Below are positions 2,577 to 12,490 of a stretch of 12,490 nt of DNA, piece by piece. Location: NCBI GenBank assembly GCA_020348985.1, contig CP070761.1, positions 587,798-600,287 on the forward strand, written 5' to 3'. Both the position numbers and the translations under genes were made by a program. Within the stretch, counting starts at the first letter, position 1. The number at the start of each line of letters is the position of its first letter. The notes beneath the pieces were generated by a model. It ran no database searches and was not told the origin of the DNA. It saw only the letters and a list, made by a program, of their open reading frames with translations. The DNA is from Candidatus Thorarchaeota archaeon (GTDB lineage: Archaea; Asgardarchaeota; Thorarchaeia; Thorarchaeales; Thorarchaeaceae).

Positions 2577-3305
2577 TCAAGTATCTCTGCCAATTGCATC
2601 GACTTCTGATATGGATCGAATGCCAGACAAGTCACCGAGCAAGTGGCCAGCTCTCTTCTCCTTTGTATCGAGATATGTTTTGCTCTCCTCGGTGGGCTCT
2701 ATTACAAGCGGGACTCTTTCCAGAATCTTCACTCCGTGCTTCTGCAGTTCCTGAATCTTCTTGGGATTGTTTGTAAGAAGCCGTATCGATTTGACGTCAA
2801 GAGTTCTAAGAATGTGGGCAGCAATTCCATAGTCACGTTCGTCAGGTTCGAATCCAAGGATGATGTTTGCGTCAACCGTGTCAACACCCATGTCCTGGAG
2901 ATAGTAGGCTTTGATCTTGTTTGTTAACCCAATGTTCCGCCCCTCCTGTCTCAGGTAAAGCAAAATGCCTTCCCCTTCCGCCTCGATTCGCTCAAGGCTC
3001 TCAATCAGTTGATCTCGACAATCGCAACGTTTGCTACCTAGTGCGTCACCAGTAAGACACTCCGAGTGCAATCTAGTAAGAACGCTTTCTTTTCCCACAA
3101 TATCTCCTTTCACCAGAGCTGTGTGCTCCTTTCCGTCGCCAGGACTAGTAAAACCACATATCTGGAACTCGCCAAAACGACTAGGCAAGTCTGCGATAAT
3201 GACGAGTCTGACACATTGACTAATGGGATCACATTGGTGATTCTTGTTCTCTTTCGTGAGCATTCGAATCTTATCTTGTGATATCTTGAGAGGCTGTACT
3301 GCCAT
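2577..3305 (-). CDS. ribA: GTP cyclohydrolase II (riboflavin biosynthesis)
   Basis: Intact motifs RLHSECLTGDALGSKRCDC (three Zn-binding Cys), YLRQEGRNIGL.NK, DERDY, LLTNNPKK and YL.TK...GH. True start is probably ATG 3305 (MAVQPL..., GAGAGTG upstream), not 3440. Confidence 0.95.
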   Translation of the reverse strand: MAVQPLKISQDKIRMLTKENKNHQCDPISQCVRLVIIADLPSRFGEFQICGFTSPGDGKEHTALVKGDIVGKESVLTRLHSECLTGDALGSKRCDCRDQLIESLERIEAEGEGILLYLRQEGRNIGLTNKIKAYYLQDMGVDTVDANIILGFEPDERDYGIAAHILRTLDVKSIRLLTNNPKKIQELQKHGVKILERVPLVIEPTEESKTYLDTKEKRAGHLLGDLSGIRSISEVDAIGRDT

Positions 3306-3339
3306 AGCTGAACACTCTCGGTGAGCCCACTCAGGATGG

Positions 3340-3360
3340 TATGATATACCTTTTCCCGCG
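3340..3360 (-). promoter_or_regulatory. Putative archaeal BRE/TATA promoter of ribA
   Basis: Minus strand reads CGCGGGAAAAGGTATATCAT: a purine-rich BRE-like run followed by a TATA-like element about 40 nt upstream of the ATG. Confidence 0.45.
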
Positions 3361-3369
3361 GAAATCACA

Positions 3370-3422
3370 TAGAGAAGCAAAGAAGGCAAAGGCAGCACGC
3401 AGAAGAGAGTAAGAATGCTGCC
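3370..3422 (-). terminator. Putative terminator after the cytochrome b561-like gene
   Basis: GGCAGCA (3391-3397) and TGCTGCC (3416-3422) form an inverted repeat. On the minus strand it is followed by the pyrimidine/U-rich tract TTTGCCTTCTTTGCTTCTCT. Confidence 0.4.
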
Positions 3423-3432
3423 CAACCTCTTT

Positions 3433-3840
3433 TTACCCATACACCAATCCTAGACCCATGTAGATTGTCAGAGTCATGAATGACGCCGTAAGTACTGCCA
3501 AACTGATGTGAAGTCTCCTGAAAAGAGTCCTGTTTACCTTCAGTTTGCCTCTTTGTCGGGCGTATCCAGTTATCGTGGTTATCAGCGCAAGAGTGACCGA
3601 TGTGAGACCCATGTATGAATGAAGATATGCAAAATGAACTCCACTTGTTGTAGTAACCATGTAGAAGGCAACTGAAAAGCCTGCTAACACAGTCAGAGTA
3701 CCGATACTTGCCACGCTCTTGTGGACTCTCAACCACCAGTTCTTTCCTCTAAGGAATCTTGCGATCAAAGCCACAACAATGACTATGATCAAACCAGTAG
3801 TCATTGTTCCAGCGTGTATCTGCCAAAGCTCAATCTGCAT
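3433..3840 (-). CDS. Small 4-TM cytochrome b561-like di-haem membrane protein
   Basis: Four hydrophobic helices, each with a His near its start: H9 (QIHAGTM), H40 (WWLRVHK), H74 (LHSYMG), H111 (RRLHISL). This is the cytochrome b561 haem-ligand pattern. SD TGAGGT upstream. Confidence 0.7.
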   Translation of the reverse strand: MQIELWQIHAGTMTTGLIIVIVVALIARFLRGKNWWLRVHKSVASIGTLTVLAGFSVAFYMVTTTSGVHFAYLHSYMGLTSVTLALITTITGYARQRGKLKVNRTLFRRLHISLAVLTASFMTLTIYMGLGLVYG

Positions 3841-7263: not shown

Positions 7264-8016
7264 TCAATCACCAAGTAGATAGATCAACAGGTAGGAAAGC
7301 ATTGTTGCACCGATGATTGTTGGGACGATCAGAACCGTCCACAGTGAGTATCCAGTCCAGAATGAGATTGTTAGAAGTAGACTAATCGATAATTCCTTTG
7401 GATACTCTGCCATTTTCTCATAGCCAACTGATGTCAGCGCATGTAGGATCAGGGAGGCTACGAGCCCCGTAAGGAGCCATCCAGTGTAGTTTGTCAGTGG
7501 TATTCCGTAATAGAGACCCGGTTCGTCCCAGACCCATATGTTAAGCACGACTGCCGCAGGATCTAGTATGAGATCGAATACAACCAAAAGAATAGCTCCA
7601 AGAGGTAAAGCGATTCTCGGATCTCTCGTTCTTGCTGCAGCGACTGTCACAGCCCCAATCACCAGAGGACCAAACGCGAAAGCCACGCTCCAGGGCACTA
7701 ATCCGAGTATTTTGTATCCCATTTGATCAGTATACTGAAACCCGCCGTAAGGCAATCCTGTTGTTATCCCGATTGCCTCTACTAGTATGGGAAAGATGCT
7801 CAAGAAGATGAGAACAAGAAGCCCTCTAACAGGGGAGAGCCACCTTAACAAGACGTAGTAGCTTGGAACAGCCAGAATCAGAATGAAGAACGCAGATACC
7901 CATGTTACTGATTCTCCAATGTCTACATTGGCAACCAACCAGCTTGCTAGAAACAAAGCAATTGTCGAAATAATCACCAGTGGCTTCAACGAAGGCTGTC
8001 GTTCTGATACGGCCAT
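7264..8016 (-). CDS. cruF: Carotenoid hydratase CruF (bisanhydrobacterioruberin hydratase-like; DUF422)
   Basis: Membrane protein with E..G..TGLPYG.F.Y...G.K..G.VP, DL.LDP.AV and YYGIP..NY.GW motifs. Start overlaps the lyeJ stop (TAATG at 8014-8018). Confidence 0.85.
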   Translation of the reverse strand: MAVSERQPSLKPLVIISTIALFLASWLVANVDIGESVTWVSAFFILILAVPSYYVLLRWLSPVRGLLVLIFLSIFPILVEAIGITTGLPYGGFQYTDQMGYKILGLVPWSVAFAFGPLVIGAVTVAAARTRDPRIALPLGAILLVVFDLILDPAAVVLNIWVWDEPGLYYGIPLTNYTGWLLTGLVASLILHALTSVGYEKMAEYPKELSISLLLTISFWTGYSLWTVLIVPTIIGATMLSYLLIYLLGD

Positions 8017-8879
8017 TATCCCACACCCAAAAGCGGAATTCCCAGAGACAAGAAGAGCACCATCCCAAACAGACCAGTGTAATAGGGGAAGTACCAGTAG
8101 GCCTTCTCAACACTTGCGCTAGGTCGAACAAGCAAGTAGAGTGGTATAGACGGATACACTAGCATTAGTAGGTTCCAAGGTGCATTCCAAGGCGCAACAA
8201 GGACAAGAATCATAGCGAAGGTAGCCCAGAATGCAAAGCACAGAAACAGTGACACTCTCTTTCCGACCACCACAGCGGTCGTCTTAAGGTCCGCCTTCAT
8301 ATCGGCCTCTATGTCAGGAATTGCAGAAAACAGATGCATTGCTGAAGTCCACATGAATGCCGCAAATATAGGTAGAAAAGGAGGAACAATCAGAGTAGCA
8401 TGGTAAAATGCCAACAAGGCTGGAATAACATAGAGGAAGTTTGAGGTGAAATCGAGGACAGGCCGAGCCTTGAATCGCAAGGGTTTCACACTGTAGAATG
8501 TCGATAACAGCATCCAAGAGAAGAACATGGCACTTGCAACCAAATCGGGCTGCAGAAACAAGATTAGTAGTATGCCATAAATGAAGGAAGCGGCAACAAG
8601 TAGATAGAGGTTCTTCCTATCCTTCTCCGCAGCTCGATATTCCTTTTCATCCTTCTTTGGGTTAAACATGTCAGTGTCCTTGTCTGATATGTCATTTACA
8701 CCATAGAGGAATATGTTGGCTGGTACCATGAAGAAGAACAGGTGGATTACGAAGTTGATATTCAGCAGCTGATTGAGGTCTGTTATGCCGACCATGTAAC
8801 CAAGTAGATACGTGCCACCGAGGTAGAGCCAGAATCTGACACGTGAGACCTTGAATGCGAGATAGAATATGTTTGTCAT
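8016..8879 (-). CDS. lyeJ: Lycopene elongase/hydratase (UbiA prenyltransferase family)
   Basis: Motifs SR.RFWLYL.G, PANIFLYGVNDISDKDTD..NPKK (UbiA NDxxDxxxD), YS..PLRFK..P.LD..SN.LY and MHLFSAIPDIEAD match haloarchaeal LyeJ. It sits between a desaturase and cruF. Confidence 0.88.
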   Translation of the reverse strand: MTNIFYLAFKVSRVRFWLYLGGTYLLGYMVGITDLNQLLNINFVIHLFFFMVPANIFLYGVNDISDKDTDMFNPKKDEKEYRAAEKDRKNLYLLVAASFIYGILLILFLQPDLVASAMFFSWMLLSTFYSVKPLRFKARPVLDFTSNFLYVIPALLAFYHATLIVPPFLPIFAAFMWTSAMHLFSAIPDIEADMKADLKTTAVVVGKRVSLFLCFAFWATFAMILVLVAPWNAPWNLLMLVYPSIPLYLLVRPSASVEKAYWYFPYYTGLFGMVLFLSLGIPLLGVG

Positions 8880-8907
8880 TCACATTACTCCGTCTTCTTC
8901 TTCGGCT

Positions 8908-10398
8908 TCATGTTCCTGCCGGAAAATCCTTCTTAATGAGCCCTGCGACAATCTCTGATGAAATGAGTGCCATTGGGACGCCGATTCCTGGATGTGTATA
9001 TTGTCCTGTATAGTAGAGATTCTTGACTTTCTTGCTCTTATGCCTGGGCCTGAAGAACGCAGATTGACTGAAGGTATGTGTTAAACCTACAGCAGTCCCT
9101 TTGTAGGCATTGTAGTCATGTGAGAAGTCGTTCAGCGTGTAGATTCTCTTCGCAATGATTGAGTCCCGAATTGGTGTGCTTAACACTTTCTCCATATGAG
9201 TTACCATCTTGTCATAATAGGCCTCTCTAATCGTGGGAGTGTCTTCGACGCCAGGTGAAATAGGAACCGTGACGAATATATTTTCACAATCCGGAGGGGC
9301 GACGGAACTATCCATTTTTGAAGGACAGCAGAGATAGTACGCCGGCTCATCCGGCCATGAGGGCTTCTCGAAAATCTGCTCGAAATGTCTTATCCAATCG
9401 TGATCTAGAATGACGTTATGATGAGTGAGGTTCTCAATCTTCTTGGCCAGACCTAGGTACATAACAAAAGCTGACGGAGCAATCGTTTTCTTCTCCCAGT
9501 AGTCCCTAGGATATGTCTGGAACTCTTTTTCGAGTAAATCAATCTCAGTATGAGCATAGTCCGCATTCGAAACAACTGCATCTGCCTCGAAGAAATCATC
9601 ACTGGATCTGACACCTACAGCCTTCCTGTCTACGACCTCTATCTCTGTGACTTCCTTTCCTAACTCAATTCTTCCACCGTGGTCCTCAGTCAGTCTCTGA
9701 AGAGCCTTAACAATCTCGCCTAAGCCACCTAGCGGATACCACACTCCAAGATTGAAGTCAATGTGAGATATCATCGAATACAGTGCAGGTGTGTTCTTTG
9801 GGTTGCCACCGAGGAAAACTATGGAGTATTGAAGGATCTTCCTTGCCCTTTCTGAATCGAAGTACTTTTTCGTCAGCTTGTCAATGTTTGACAGAATGCT
9901 CAGCTTCCAGCCCGCAGCCATAAGCCTTGGGCTGAACATGGATCTTAAGCCCGCGAGGTCTTCATACATTAGACCGTCCAGAAGATATTCATACTTCACC
10001 TTGGCTTGGCTCAAGTACTGAGATAGCTTGTCTGCTCCGTTCTCCTCTAGTCGCTCAAACAGTTCCATGTTGTCTTCAAGATTGGCCGAAATGTCGATGA
10101 CCTCATCTGGGAAGAATATCCGATACGATGGATCAAGTCTTGTTAGCTTGTAGAAGTCCTCTGTCTTTCTGCCGAAATTAGCAAAGAAATGGTCGAATAT
10201 CTCAGGCATTAGATACCATGAAGGACCCATATCGAAGAGAAAGCCGTCTTTCCGCCAGATTCTTGCCCTTCCGCCTAGTTCCTTGTTCTTTTCAAGAACT
10301 AGGACATCGTGTCCATCTCTTGCAAGTAGTGCTGCAGTCGAGAGTCCGCCAACACCAGCTCCTATTATGATTGTTCTCACTCTAACACCCTTCCTCAT
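8908..10398 (-). CDS. crtD: Phytoene desaturase family FAD oxidoreductase, probable carotenoid 3,4-desaturase
   Basis: GAGVGG Rossmann motif, EKN..LGGR, FDMGPSWYLMP, FLGG.P..TPALY, WYP.GG, SNAD and G.YTHPGIGVPM. First gene of a desaturase-lyeJ-cruF operon, as in haloarchaea. Start may be GTG 10380 (SD GGGTG). The family call is firm; crtD versus crtI is inferred from synteny. Confidence 0.8.
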   Translation of the reverse strand: MRKGVRVRTIIIGAGVGGLSTAALLARDGHDVLVLEKNKELGGRARIWRKDGFLFDMGPSWYLMPEIFDHFFANFGRKTEDFYKLTRLDPSYRIFFPDEVIDISANLEDNMELFERLEENGADKLSQYLSQAKVKYEYLLDGLMYEDLAGLRSMFSPRLMAAGWKLSILSNIDKLTKKYFDSERARKILQYSIVFLGGNPKNTPALYSMISHIDFNLGVWYPLGGLGEIVKALQRLTEDHGGRIELGKEVTEIEVVDRKAVGVRSSDDFFEADAVVSNADYAHTEIDLLEKEFQTYPRDYWEKKTIAPSAFVMYLGLAKKIENLTHHNVILDHDWIRHFEQIFEKPSWPDEPAYYLCCPSKMDSSVAPPDCENIFVTVPISPGVEDTPTIREAYYDKMVTHMEKVLSTPIRDSIIAKRIYTLNDFSHDYNAYKGTAVGLTHTFSQSAFFRPRHKSKKVKNLYYTGQYTHPGIGVPMALISSEIVAGLIKKDFPAGT

Positions 10399-10550
10399 TA
10401 CAAATGTTTACGGTTGAAATCCTCCAAGGCCCCAGTTTTTGCCATATGTCATACCTTATTAACTATGGTGAAGAGGAAATTCCAAGAATACTTCCATCTC
10501 CTTCAGGAAACCAATTGGGAAGTGTTTCAAGGATAATAGGGGGTTGTGTG
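10399..10550. promoter_or_regulatory. Divergent promoter region between the crtD and crtB operons
   Basis: Head-to-head genes. A central AT-only heptamer TTATTAA at 10456-10462 (TTAATAA on the minus strand) is TATA-like in both directions. Confidence 0.5.
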
Positions 10551-11531
10551 ATGTTCAACGATTATGCATTACATCTTACAGTCTTGCCCACTGACATAGA
10601 TGCAAGTCCGGAGATTGATCAGAAGACGCTTTCTGAAAGTTACGATTATTGTATGGATCTGTTCAAACTTCACGCTAAGTCATTCTACTTCGCTTCAAGA
10701 TATCTAGAGGAACATGAACGCAAGTCTATGGCAGCTCTTTATGCTTTCTGTAGACTCGCCGATGACTTCGCGGATGAGATTGATATCCCAAAGGATAGGC
10801 TAGAAGTCGAGTTGGATCGTCTTCTCGAGATAACTGAAAAGCTTGCCACCGGAGTGAACTTCAACCACCCTATCTTCATTGCCTTTGGAGACACAATGAG
10901 GAAGTACAGTATTCCACTCAGATATGTGCAAGAGCTGATTGAAGGCGTTCGAATGGACATTAATCTCATTGAGGTCCGGACGACCGAGGAGCTGGACAAA
11001 TACTGCTATCATGTTGCCTCCACAGTTGGAATCATGATGTGCCATGTCTGGGGTGCGGACAATCCCGACACTCTTGAGAGAGCTGCAGACTTGGGTCGTG
11101 CCATGCAGCTTACCAATATCCTACGCGATGTTGCAGAAGATTTCGAGAATGGCCGAATCTATATACCACTTGAGACACGAAGCGAGTTTCGTATAGGTAT
11201 TGATGATTTCAAGAACAGATCAACGAGTCCCAACTTCAAATGGATGATAAGGAGCCTGATTTCAAGAGCTGATAGCCTCTATGCGAAGGCGGAGATAGGC
11301 ATTGCCGACCTTCCTCCAAGAGCTCAGTTCACTGTCAAGGTAGCAAGCAGAGTCTATGGGGAAATCATGAATGTGATTAAGGACATGGACTACGATGTCT
11401 GGAGCAGAAGAGCAGTCGTGCCGAAATGGAAGAAACTCTGGATTGCTTTCAAGGCGAGAGGAGAGTATAAGAAGGAACTCAAGGACTATGCTCATAATCT
11501 GGTAGAAGAGCCACTTGTGGCGGCCACATGA
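10551..11531 (+). CDS. crtB: Phytoene synthase
   Basis: Motifs HAKSFYFAS, LYAFCRLADDFAD (DDxxD), YCYHVASTVG, LG.AMQLTNILRDV.ED...GRIYIP and RRAVV. Real start is probably ATG 10551 (AGGGGG upstream), not 10404. Confidence 0.93.
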   Translation: MFNDYALHLTVLPTDIDASPEIDQKTLSESYDYCMDLFKLHAKSFYFASRYLEEHERKSMAALYAFCRLADDFADEIDIPKDRLEVELDRLLEITEKLATGVNFNHPIFIAFGDTMRKYSIPLRYVQELIEGVRMDINLIEVRTTEELDKYCYHVASTVGIMMCHVWGADNPDTLERAADLGRAMQLTNILRDVAEDFENGRIYIPLETRSEFRIGIDDFKNRSTSPNFKWMIRSLISRADSLYAKAEIGIADLPPRAQFTVKVASRVYGEIMNVIKDMDYDVWSRRAVVPKWKKLWIAFKARGEYKKELKDYAHNLVEEPLVAAT

Positions 11532-11556
11532 TTAGTTTGTCTTTCGTGGTGGTGCA

Positions 11557-12490
11557 ATGACCGGGGAGATCGAATCTAAAGAACGTGATGAGGAAGTAAT
11601 AATCATCGGTGGAGGTTTTGGAGGGCTTAGCGCTGCGGTAAGGATGCAGGCAGCTGGGTTTCCAGTGACCTTGCTAGAAAAACGCCACCAGCTCGGTGGA
11701 CGCGCCGGAGTTTTTACTGAGAAGGGATATACATTTGATACTGGACCGACAATACTCACGCCACCATTCTTGATTGAAGACTTGTTCAGCTTTGCTGGAC
11801 GCAATTGGTCCGACTACGGTGAATTGGTTGAAGTTTCTCCAAAGTATAGACTCTATTTTCCAGATGGGTCCAAGATGGACTACGCTGATTCTGAGCACAA
11901 CATCAGGGAAGTAGAGCGGCTTAGTCCCGGTGATGTTGAGGGCTATAAAAGGTTCATGAAGGCTGTCAAACCCATCTACGAGCTAGGTTTTGAGAAGTTT
12001 GGTTCGCAGGCTTTTGACTCTCTTTGGGACATGGTGAAAGTTGGCCCAGCTGGTTTGAGACACAAAGCGTACAAGAGTGTGCATGGAATGGTTGCCAGCT
12101 ATGTCAAAGATCCACGGCTCCGAATGGCCTTATCATTCAACCCTCTCTTTATTGGAGGCAACCCGTTTTCTTCCACTGCGATCTATACTCTAATTACATA
12201 CATCGAAGAGAAGCACGGAATGTGGTGGGTGAGAGGAGGAACTCACAGACTTGCTGATGCTATGGAAAAGCTCTTCGTCGAGCTTGGCGGCAAAGTTGTC
12301 CTGAATTCGGAAGTTGAAAGAATCGGCGTTTCAAAGAGACGACAGGTTACTCACGTGGAAGCAAAAGATGGTAGGGAATACCCTGCCGACATTGTAATCT
12401 CTAATGCAGATGTTGCGCGTACATACATGGATTTGGTTGACAAAGAACACCGAATATGGAACTCAGACAAGAGGTTCAGACGAGCAAAGA
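11557..12490 (+). CDS. crtI: Phytoene desaturase, 3'-partial (absent from the ORF track)
   Basis: Hand translation from ATG 11557 (SD GGTGGTG) is open to the window end: MTGEIESKERDEEVIIIGGGFGGLSAAVRMQAAG...LEKRHQLGGRA...FDTGPTILTPP...GGNPF...WWVRGGT...SNADVARTY. Lies 25 nt downstream of crtB. Confidence 0.92.
   Translation, partial: MTGEIESKERDEEVIIIGGGFGGLSAAVRMQAAGFPVTLLEKRHQLGGRAGVFTEKGYTFDTGPTILTPPFLIEDLFSFAGRNWSDYGELVEVSPKYRLYFPDGSKMDYADSEHNIREVERLSPGDVEGYKRFMKAVKPIYELGFEKFGSQAFDSLWDMVKVGPAGLRHKAYKSVHGMVASYVKDPRLRMALSFNPLFIGGNPFSSTAIYTLITYIEEKHGMWWVRGGTHRLADAMEKLFVELGGKVVLNSEVERIGVSKRRQVTHVEAKDGREYPADIVISNADVARTYMDLVDKEHRIWNSDKRFRRAK

Follow-up and report, generated by a model that had tools for sequence, protein, structure and literature searches.

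A predicted bacterioruberin-type carotenoid gene cluster in a Thorarchaeal genome

Organization of the carotenoid locus and its host

The window analysed here, by which we mean the whole stretch of 12,490 nucleotides, carries between positions 7264 and 12490 the genes crtD, lyeJ and cruF on the minus strand, divergent from crtB and crtI on the plus strand (Table 1). All five genes were found at the coordinates given in a preliminary description of this DNA, and its claim of intact motifs holds for the motifs of LyeJ and CrtB and for the columns shared among CruF proteins. The crtD-lyeJ-cruF order, which had been likened to that of haloarchaea, is the same as in the annotated clusters of Halocatena and Halarchaeum; cruF lies directly downstream of lyeJ there, in related Asgard loci and in the window, where a TAATG stop/start overlap couples the two genes translationally. 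The spacer between crtD and crtB measures about 130-270 bp in the relatives. Read from its genes, the locus would be a self-contained carotenoid operon pair holding the complete set for a predicted route from GGPP to a product of bacterioruberin type.

Table 1. Coordinates of the features of the carotenoid locus
Feature	Positions	Strand	Profile match or remark
cruF-like membrane hydratase, 250 aa	7264-8016	(-)	PF04240, 146 bits
lyeJ-like UbiA prenyltransferase, 287 aa	8016-8879	(-)	NF009516/PRK12875, 286 bits
crtD-like FAD desaturase, 496 aa	8908-10398	(-)	NF058655 CrtID, 672 bits
crtD/crtB spacer, probable divergent promoter	10399-10550	no strand	conditional on crtB start at 10551
crtB phytoene synthase, listed ORF 375 aa	10404-11531	(+)	PF00494, 245 bits
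crtI phytoene desaturase, N-terminal 311 residues, cut by contig end	11557-12490	(+)	TIGR02734

The window is 12.5 kb long and forms one of the 131 contigs of a Thorarchaeota MAG, lyeJ was found in neither of the two other species of the same genus (0/2), and synteny with these congeners is confined to ribA, all of which would fit a mis-binned contig derived from a haloarchaeon, a methanogen, a bacterium or some other organism. We regard such an origin as highly improbable, given that contigs of 160-426 kb from MAGs of Thor and other Asgard archaea encode the nearest relatives of all five proteins, that RibA of the window shares 65-69% identity with its counterparts in the same-genus genomes, and that the GC content along the contig is 44-50% against 48% genome-wide. 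The best relative of LyeJ (83% identity) and the syntenic clusters also belong to Thorarchaeota MAGs, in agreement with the Asgard, possibly Thorarchaeial, lineage proposed in the preliminary description. Its remark that acidic proteins of the haloarchaeal kind are lacking was confirmed as well, the proteins of the window being non-acidic (CrtD has a pI of 6.1 here against 4.4-4.5 in haloarchaea). The anaerobe-type neighbours that it had considered informative did not prove so: comparison of the related loci showed that the other genes of the window adjoin the cluster in no relative, and they have therefore no functional meaning for it.

Enzymes of the C40 backbone

The true start of crtB is probably at position 10551, giving a protein of 326 amino acids, as orthologues begin at the position equal to M50 of the long ORF and a GGGGG Shine-Dalgarno-like run lies 8-13 nucleotides upstream of that ATG. 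Both DxxxD motifs of the protein (D120-D124 and D242-D246) are invariant, and crtB is the sole SQS_PSY gene of the genome. The protein passes none of the NCBIfam equivalogs for CrtB (best score 191 against a cut-off of 500; top match HpnD, 217 against 279). This test is nonetheless non-discriminating, because genuine haloarchaeal CrtB shows the same pattern of matches and fails likewise. The partner crtI fragment exceeds the subfamily cut-off of TIGR02734 with 326 bits over residues 14-308, and two full-length Asgard orthologues reach 577-580 bits on the same model.

The solved structure that best matches the synthase is 8IS6, named CrtM, which at 153 bits stands ahead of the rest. This could mean that the enzyme is a C30 synthase of the CrtM type, making from FPP diapocarotenoids that are then elongated, an interpretation to which we give very little credence. 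Genuine haloarchaeal CrtB yields the same CrtM-type top matches, and structures of this type head the list because no C40 CrtB structure is among the matches. Moreover, the synthase has a small residue, Ser, at the position of F26 in Staphylococcus aureus CrtM, where the CrtM-type entries 8IS6, 5IYS and 2ZCO have Phe. In 2002 Umeno, Tobias and Arnold reportedly implicated this residue in the control of chain length, and the entry 3AE0 departs from 2ZCO at precisely this residue (Phe to Ala). The accompanying desaturase also speaks against C30 products, being closely related to the C40 enzyme CrtI of Pantoea (a full-length Asgard orthologue matches 4DGK with 452 bits).

The desaturase, elongase and hydratase genes

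The CrtD-like protein lies above the equivalog cut-off of NF058655 (672 against 640 bits), which places it in the type of the haloarchaeal bifunctional CrtI/CrtD; this model and that for LyeJ also match the genuine haloarchaeal enzymes. It has an N-terminal FAD-binding fold with the domains NAD_binding_8 and Amino_oxidase, and it is 46% identical to the CrtD of the Halocatena crtD-lyeJ-cruF cluster and 30% identical to its Asgard CrtI paralogue. Among solved structures it comes closest to 4DGK (CrtI) and 4REP (CrtD).

The LyeJ-like protein likewise exceeds its cut-off (286 against 205 bits on NF009516/PRK12875, an NCBIfam equivalog on which the Halocatena LyeJ used as control scores 426), and the model is specific, with a pass in Haloferax volcanii only among 14 control genomes. 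Its Asp-rich motifs are whole (NDxxDxxxD from N62 to D70 and DxxxD from D189 to D193), and in our alignment the residues N62, D63, D66, D70, D189 and D193 are invariant across the Asgard archaea, Methanocalculus, Caldarchaeum, a Fimbriimonadales bacterium and haloarchaea. [quoted passage not shown] The phylogeny proposed in the preliminary description, against haloarchaeal and actinobacterial homologues, answered in two parts. The window LyeJ falls in an Asgard clade of its own (IQ-TREE support 99), inside a larger clade with Methanocalculus and Caldarchaeum (support 83), and the haloarchaeal LyeJ sequences form another clade outside it (support 95). A grouping with UbiA enzymes of quinone or lipid synthesis, which had been named as the outcome that would speak against LyeJ, was seen neither in the tree, where the DGGGP-synthase-like and MenA-like outgroups are set far apart by branches 7-10 substitutions per site long, nor in the profile scores, the protein being well below the cut-offs of the two other prenyltransferase models, NF009608 and NF010119. 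We know of no characterised member of the LyeJ clade that includes the Asgard sequences.

The CruF-like protein is the one at which the claim of a complete C50-type gene content needs qualifying: all five families were found, this one at the level of PF04240. It is under the cut-offs of both equivalogs (TIGR03460, 129.8 against 154.7; NF041333, 90.5 against 300), models that the Halocatena CruF control passes with 167 and 356 bits. It is 27-29% identical to haloarchaeal CruF and has in common with it E80 and the columns GxPxG, DxxxDP and GxPxxNxxGW. Its predicted reaction is the conversion of bisanhydrobacterioruberin into bacterioruberin by hydration of the C5 units added by the elongase.

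The second-best models of the CruF-like protein are C40 1'-hydroxylases, and the Asgard LyeJ sequences are 35-38% identical to two haloarchaeal LyeJ references and form a separate clade. These data, together with the absence of cruF from half of the Hermod-type genomes, are what one would expect if carotenoids were made that are not C50 bacterioruberin, either because the LyeJ-like enzyme stops at C45 or prenylates and hydrates differently, or because CruF and CrtD yield a hydroxylated acyclic C40 compound of the rhodopin or didehydrorhodopin type. We consider such an outcome unlikely, although it deserves to be kept in mind: the LyeJ cut-off is passed on a specific model, and the haloarchaeal gene order and lyeJ-cruF coupling are retained. 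In addition, to our knowledge no C40 pathway, including those with CruF in Deinococcus and cyanobacteria, needs a UbiA enzyme beside CrtD and CruF.

Members of PF04240 are much commoner in Asgard archaea than LyeJ, occurring in 132/400 genomes and without LyeJ in 108, and in one congener the gene adjoins a chloride channel gene. The family has therefore other roles, which is one ground for proposing that the substrate modified by the desaturase-like, UbiA and CruF-like proteins is not a carotenoid but a membrane ether lipid or some other isoprenoid. As a precedent, the phytoene-desaturase (CrtI) family includes the hydroxyarchaeol synthase (Has) of Methanosarcina acetivorans, which catalyses the hydration of unsaturated archaeol (Mori et al. 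2015, as cited in 10.1101/2025.10.20.683597). A lipid function seems very doubtful to us, however, with the three genes fixed beside crtI and the genome's only member of the phytoene-synthase family, and with a CrtD-like protein that passes the CrtID model and shares 46% identity with a haloarchaeal CrtD.

Conservation of the cluster in Asgard archaea

LyeJ has a patchy distribution, being present in 33 of the 400 Asgard species genomes, and the public annotation of the Thor proteins reads 'carotenoid biosynthesis protein' or 'prenyltransferase'. The cluster is conserved as a unit: the same five-gene layout occurs on contigs as long as 426 kb in MAGs of Thor, Hermod and other Asgard archaea and is therefore no binning artefact. 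The genes crtI, crtB, crtD and lyeJ are all present in 16/20 related loci, the remaining 4 being cut by contig ends, and in most loci cruF either follows immediately or lies no more than about 3.5 kb away. Because this identical layout recurs wherever the contig is long enough, the gene order is far beyond chance. Every LyeJ-positive genome of the family to which the window belongs (18/18) has a CruF of the cluster type, whereas cruF is missing from half of the Hermod-type genomes, so that the end products would differ among the relatives.

Proposed pathway and physiological context

Taking these results together, we infer that the best explanation for the locus, to which we assign a probability of roughly 0.6, is a Thorarchaeal operon pair for a bacterioruberin-like acyclic C50 (or C45) polyol carotenoid of the membrane. 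In the pathway so predicted, CrtB would join two molecules of GGPP into phytoene, CrtI would desaturate phytoene to lycopene, and the LyeJ-like enzyme would transfer C5 units from DMAPP onto C-2 of each lycopene end with hydration of the 1,2 bond. The 3,4 double bonds would be brought in by the CrtD-like flavoenzyme, and the CruF-like membrane protein would hydrate the added C5 units, so that the end product residing in the membrane, like the substrates, is deduced from the enzyme families.

A search of the genome returned no lycopene cyclase and no rhodopsin, and lycopene is therefore not diverted to retinal. Photolyase is encoded in 26/33 LyeJ-positive and in 72/367 LyeJ-negative Asgard genomes, these being raw counts uncorrected for relatedness or MAG completeness, and in the Hermod-type genomes its gene lies 5-8 kb from lyeJ. 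This association suggests a photo-protective or antioxidant role, with stiffening of the membrane an equally possible one. Were the pigment made, the link with photolyase would be a further sign that some Asgard lineages of sediments are exposed to light or oxidants. Judging by isolate names and record titles, several relatives presumably derive from dark sediments (an estuarine sulfate-methane transition zone and the Yap trench), and if so the case for protection from light is weakened. Asgard archaea of the Thor and Hermod types lack terminal oxidases and are considered strictly anaerobic, and the genome searched here had neither cytochrome bd nor a haem-copper oxidase. A MenA-like gene suggests that a quinone may exist. 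The biochemical question thereby raised is which electron acceptor serves CrtI-type desaturases in organisms without oxidases.

More tentatively, and with odds that we put clearly below even, the results could be joined into a wider proposal. Asgard archaea of the Thor and Hermod types would use oxygen-independent desaturation to make membrane-spanning bacterioruberin-like C50 carotenoids, which would belong, with photolyase, to a defence against light and oxidants, and crtD-lyeJ-cruF would be an old archaeal invention widely shared among Asgard archaea, Methanocalculus, Caldarchaeum and Thermoprofundales and not a haloarchaeal speciality. Production of the pigment would mean that C50 carotenoids no longer mark out halophiles and actinobacteria, and a rigid polyene with polar ends would have to be considered in Thorarchaeal membranes and would bear on models of the Asgard membrane. 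We know of no report of C50 pigments from the Thorarchaeal lineage.

Comparison with known carotenoid systems

The haloarchaeal pathway has the same five enzyme families, with crtD-lyeJ-cruF in the same order and crtB nearby in the Halocatena salina and Halarchaeum clusters, the same NCBIfam equivalogs for LyeJ and CrtD, and conserved Asp-rich and FAD motifs. The same order is given for Haloarcula japonica, with crtD (c0507), lyeJ (c0506) and cruF (c0505) (Yang et al. 2015, as cited in PMC9258230), and haloarchaeal CrtB and bifunctional CrtI/CrtD enzymes have been described (PMC11946383). In contrast to haloarchaea, the Asgard host is non-halophilic and apparently anaerobic with non-acidic proteins, its cluster has a separate CrtI of bacterial type, its CruF is below the equivalogs, its LyeJ branches outside the haloarchaeal clade, and the Thorarchaeal genome is without rhodopsin or lycopene cyclase. 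The identities given above (against both references for LyeJ and CruF, against Halocatena for CrtD) set the two systems further apart. The actinobacterial C50 elongases of the CrtEb/LbtBC type resemble LyeJ in being UbiA-family enzymes that add C5 units onto lycopene, whereas an Arthrobacter plasmid homologue of this type is 32% identical to the window LyeJ over 69% of the query and takes a long branch outside the LyeJ clades.

Comparable gene sets have already been published for organisms other than haloarchaea (PMC9585477, PMC12137139, PMC9948471), and like ours they place the module outside Halobacteria and are predicted from genomes alone. Genes of the bacterioruberin type are predicted in Thermoprofundales subgroup E, where the genes for carotenoids and photolyase are grouped, as they are in the Hermod-type Asgard loci (PMC9585477), in Hikarchaeia (PMC7599335, PMC13753752) and in Patescibacteria from Lake Baikal (PMC9948471). 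The Heimdallarchaeon 'Ca. Kariarchaeum pelagium' has crtB, crtI, a putative lyeJ and crtD (PMC12137139, Extended Data Fig. 3); the set listed for it lacks cruF and includes a putative glycosyltransferase, whereas the Thorarchaeal locus has cruF and no linked glycosyltransferase. In the searchable literature we found no description of the cluster in Thorarchaeia or Hermodarchaeia. The cluster is a real but ordinary addition to a known pathway, and the gain is modest, since the pathway is predicted from the genome alone and had been predicted before in several other uncultured archaea.

The nearest named relative outside the Asgard archaea is Methanocalculus alkaliphilus, a named, cultured species and a strictly anaerobic methanogen, on whose pigments we found no report in the literature. 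It has another gene order (cruF-crtD-crtB-lyeJ, contiguous) and one desaturase with no separate crtI. Its LyeJ adjoins the Asgard clade in FastTree (support 94) and falls in IQ-TREE in the same 22-row group, whose internal branching that tree does not resolve. The CruF and LyeJ of this methanogen are 41-43% and 45% identical, respectively, to the window proteins, and its NCBIfam matches follow the same pattern, including a CruF below the cut-off.

Gene content and family assignments

All five carotenoid genes proposed in the preliminary description were recovered at their expected positions by the ORF listing and HMM scans (see table), and the Asp-rich motifs of LyeJ and the DxxxD motifs of CrtB were invariant in the alignments, in agreement with the intact motifs that it had noted. 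The model NF058655 passed by the CrtD-like protein is that named 'bifunctional phytoene desaturase/3,4-desaturase', and the stop of lyeJ and the start of cruF overlap in the sequence TAATG. We read the start of crtB at ATG 10551 because its orthologues have their first residue at the equivalent of M50 of the window's long ORF, because a GGGGG run lies upstream of this ATG, and because a real long ORF would put just 5 bp between the starts of crtB and the divergent crtD. The divergent spacer to crtD would then probably be 152 bp long and codons 1-49 of the listed ORF (10404-10550) probably untranslated.

Carotenoid genes of the window, with the family matches of their predicted products
Gene	Positions	Strand	Family match
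cruF-like	7264-8016	-	PF04240, 146 bits (HMM scan)
lyeJ-like UbiA prenyltransferase	8016-8879	-	best model NF009516/PRK12875, 286 bits (cut-off 205)
CrtI-family flavoenzyme (crtD-like)	8908-10398	-	equivalog NF058655 passed, 672 bits (cut-off 640)
phytoene/squalene-synthase-family protein (crtB)	10404-11531	+	PF00494, 245 bits
second CrtI-family protein (crtI), N-terminal 311 residues, truncated by the contig end	11557-12489	+	

To calibrate these names we used two annotated haloarchaeal clusters on plasmid records, from Halocatena salina (L027) and Halarchaeum sp. (L028), both of which show the order crtI/D, prenyltransferase, cruF with crtB nearby. NF009516 can be taken as a LyeJ model because it scored 426 bits on the Halocatena LyeJ and its cut-off was passed by Haloferax volcanii only among 14 control genomes; by NCBI's own threshold, the UbiA protein of the window is a LyeJ member. 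Both CruF equivalog cut-offs are exceeded by the haloarchaeal CruF, whereas the CruF-like protein of the window stays below them (130 vs 155 and 90 vs 300), being a PF04240 member with 27-29% identity to CruF in which the conserved columns are kept. The complete C50-type pathway put forward earlier is supported as gene content, with five genes and the LyeJ and CrtID cut-offs passed, and as regards lineage, and is weakened at CruF.

The NCBIfam pattern of the synthase, with HpnD on top and every model below cut-off, is shared with genuine haloarchaeal CrtB, so that the HpnD score is no argument against a phytoene synthase. Similarly, its best solved-structure match is an entry named CrtM, but a haloarchaeal CrtB query gives the identical list of structure matches, and this top match therefore does not discriminate. 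At the position of S. aureus CrtM F26 the window has Ser, as against Phe in 2ZCO, 8IS6 (for which a literature search yielded no description) and 5IYS; it is precisely at this position that PDB entry 3AE0 departs from 2ZCO, with Ala in place of Phe. The residue reportedly restricts CrtM to C30, a result attributed to Umeno, Tobias and Arnold in 2002. The full-length Asgard CrtI orthologue matched Pantoea CrtI with 452 bits. Judging from these sequence comparisons, the backbone is taken to be C40.

The only SQS_PSY gene of the genome is that of the window, and no lycopene cyclase domain was found in the genome; two genome searches for rhodopsin were also empty, a result of little weight since the control genomes gave no match either. 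Most probably the cluster serves to make, from GGPP, a bacterioruberin-like carotenoid of C50 (or C45) type; we infer this product, its role and what would take up electrons from the desaturases under anaerobic conditions. Searches of the genome for cytochrome bd and haem-copper oxidase and for MqnA/D of the futalosine pathway found none, and a MenA-like prenyltransferase (G000:C1:1515693-1516526 in the window's own genome) scored just above cut-off (107.5 vs 102); a quinone is a possible acceptor for the two FAD desaturases.

Lineage and conservation of the cluster

The window is precisely one whole contig of a metagenome-assembled genome of 131 contigs (3.16 Mb in total, 48% GC, 86% completeness), stored with 100-N spacers joining the contigs. 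Because a search with RF01959 found no 16S gene, lineage was checked through homologues and related loci. The closest LyeJ (83% identity) belongs to a Thorarchaeota MAG and the contig's RibA shares 65-69% identity with those of the two congener species, which supports the Asgard/Thorarchaeia origin suggested before; the proteins are likewise of non-haloarchaeal character, CrtD having a pI of 6.1 compared with 4.4-4.5 in haloarchaea. In DNA comparisons with the two congeners ribA was the sole match, and the insertion site is therefore not visible from synteny.

We collected 20 related loci from MAGs labelled Thor, Hermod, 'Promethearchaeota' or Odin, on contigs reaching 426 kb. The window's arrangement, with crtI and crtB diverging from crtD and lyeJ, recurs in 16 of these loci, contig ends interrupting the remaining four; in most loci cruF lies directly downstream or at most about 3.5 kb away. 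The rival view that the cluster genes tailor ether lipids has a precedent in the CrtI-family hydroxyarchaeol synthase of Methanosarcina (Mori et al. 2015, as cited in 10.1101/2025.10.20.683597), and is unlikely because the three genes crtD, lyeJ and cruF are fixed to crtB and crtI.

The window's nine other genes were also considered as parts of the system (an Fe-S protein, a radical SAM protein, an MBL hydrolase, ribA and others), and were rejected as such, since none lies beside the cluster in any of these relatives, whose flanks are unrelated (a restriction-modification system, AOR, 2-oxoacid dehydrogenase). The cluster hence stands by itself as a unit, the 'anaerobe-type neighbours' remarked on earlier being incidental. 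Among these neighbours, a membrane protein of 135 aa (3433-3840, minus strand) that matches cytochrome b561 weakly (24 bits) has an ORF that overlaps the start of the GTP cyclohydrolase II gene (2577-3440, minus strand) by 8 bases, and the pair may form an operon.

Phylogeny of LyeJ

Trees of LyeJ were built with FastTree and IQ-TREE from matches in a representative library of 1.8 billion proteins. The Asgard sequences formed a single clade (support 99) with Thor-type and Hermod/Hod-type subclades, which FastTree places next to sequences of Methanocalculus and 'Ca. Caldarchaeum' (support 94); in IQ-TREE the branching of these three within a 22-row group was not settled. The Asgard group is nested in a larger, mostly unnamed clade that includes a Fimbriimonadales bacterium. 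Look-ups of cluster members around the Asgard and Methanocalculus clades added few names: one returned a Caldarchaeum cluster and an unclassified 'archaeon' and nothing else named, the other no names. The clade of haloarchaeal LyeJ (95) falls outside this larger clade, with actinobacterial-type and paralogous haloarchaeal prenyltransferases more distant still. The window's LyeJ-like protein is not nested among the characterised LyeJ enzymes, nor does it group with quinone/lipid UbiA enzymes, a grouping that would have spoken against the C50 proposal: branches 7-10 substitutions per site long lead to the lipid/quinone-type UbiA paralogue of the same genome and to a Hermod UbiA2. Being effectively unrooted, the trees say nothing on which lineage was donor and which recipient of the module. 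Three representatives of the family, P0230 (625 aa), P0234 (558 aa) and P0237 (630 aa), are about twice the normal length, their LyeJ part being C-terminal and fused to an N-terminal domain of no assigned identity.

The cultured methanogen Methanocalculus alkaliphilus (GCA_024170505.1) carries a contiguous cruF-crtD-crtB-lyeJ block (L022:10001-14082), adjoining glutamate synthase and F420-related genes. Our literature search found no report on its pigments.

Distribution across Asgard genomes and association with photolyase

LyeJ matches were present in 33 of 400 Asgard species genomes, 31 of them above cut-off: 18/86 in the window's family (own genome counted), 12/19 in a second family, called Hermod-type as its locus L035 shares a contig with the Hermodarchaeota-labelled L018, and 0/135 in the largest Asgard family. 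A genome search found LyeJ in neither congener, one of which is 98% complete. Cluster-type CruF accompanies LyeJ in all 18 positive genomes of the window's family and in only 6 of the 12 Hermod-type ones. In one Hermod-type genome the cruF adjoining lyeJ (G107:C64:7156-7719) has three in-frame stops (2 TAG, 1 TAA), which together with the relatives without cruF suggests that this lineage is losing the final hydration step. Proteins of PF04240 were found in 132 of the 400 genomes, 108 of which lack LyeJ, and the family clearly has other roles in Asgard archaea. A second, widespread type of about 300 aa (45-118 bits) is found in genomes without LyeJ; in one congener (L034:5906-6832; G320:C42) such a protein, of 308 residues, adjoins a CLC chloride channel with no crt genes nearby. 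Its substrate may be an ether lipid.

A photolyase gene is present in the window's genome (G000:C1:1404490-1404960) and absent from both congeners. In raw counts that ignore relatedness and completeness, photolyase occurs in 26/33 LyeJ-positive versus 72/367 LyeJ-negative Asgard genomes, and in 14/18 versus 26/68 within the window's family. In Hermod-type genomes it shares a contig with lyeJ at a distance of 5-8 kb, accompanied by a Nim/PPOX-like gene, a FixC/ETF-QO-like flavoprotein and often a 349-residue B12-binding protein; the four genes stand at L035:10350-15082 (= G095:C17) and also in L014, L016, L017, L018, L020 and L021. Over its C-terminal half the B12-binding protein resembles the B12 domain of CarH, a light sensor, at 57 bits and so far short of the cut-off, and its N-terminal 140 residues have no family match; a search for an orthologue of this protein in the window's genome gave just weak corrinoid-protein matches. 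These four genes form a possible light-response island. Photoprotection as the role of the carotenoid is only a suggestion, because several carriers, going by isolate names, record titles and sampling sites, presumably come from dark sediments.

Comparison with known systems

Our literature search found no paper on the cluster in Thorarchaeia or Hermodarchaeia, and the Thor proteins of the cluster appear in public annotation as 'carotenoid biosynthesis protein' and 'prenyltransferase', with one JGI record of 'bisanhydrobacterioruberin hydratase'. Outside Halobacteria, bacterioruberin-type gene sets have been described in Hikarchaeia (PMC7599335, PMC13753752), in Lake Baikal Patescibacteria (PMC9948471) and in Thermoprofundales subgroup E (PMC9585477), and the Asgard archaeon 'Ca. 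Kariarchaeum pelagium' has crtB, crtI, a putative lyeJ and crtD (PMC12137139). The carotenoid and photorepair cluster of Thermoprofundales resembles the arrangement seen here in the Hermod-type genomes.
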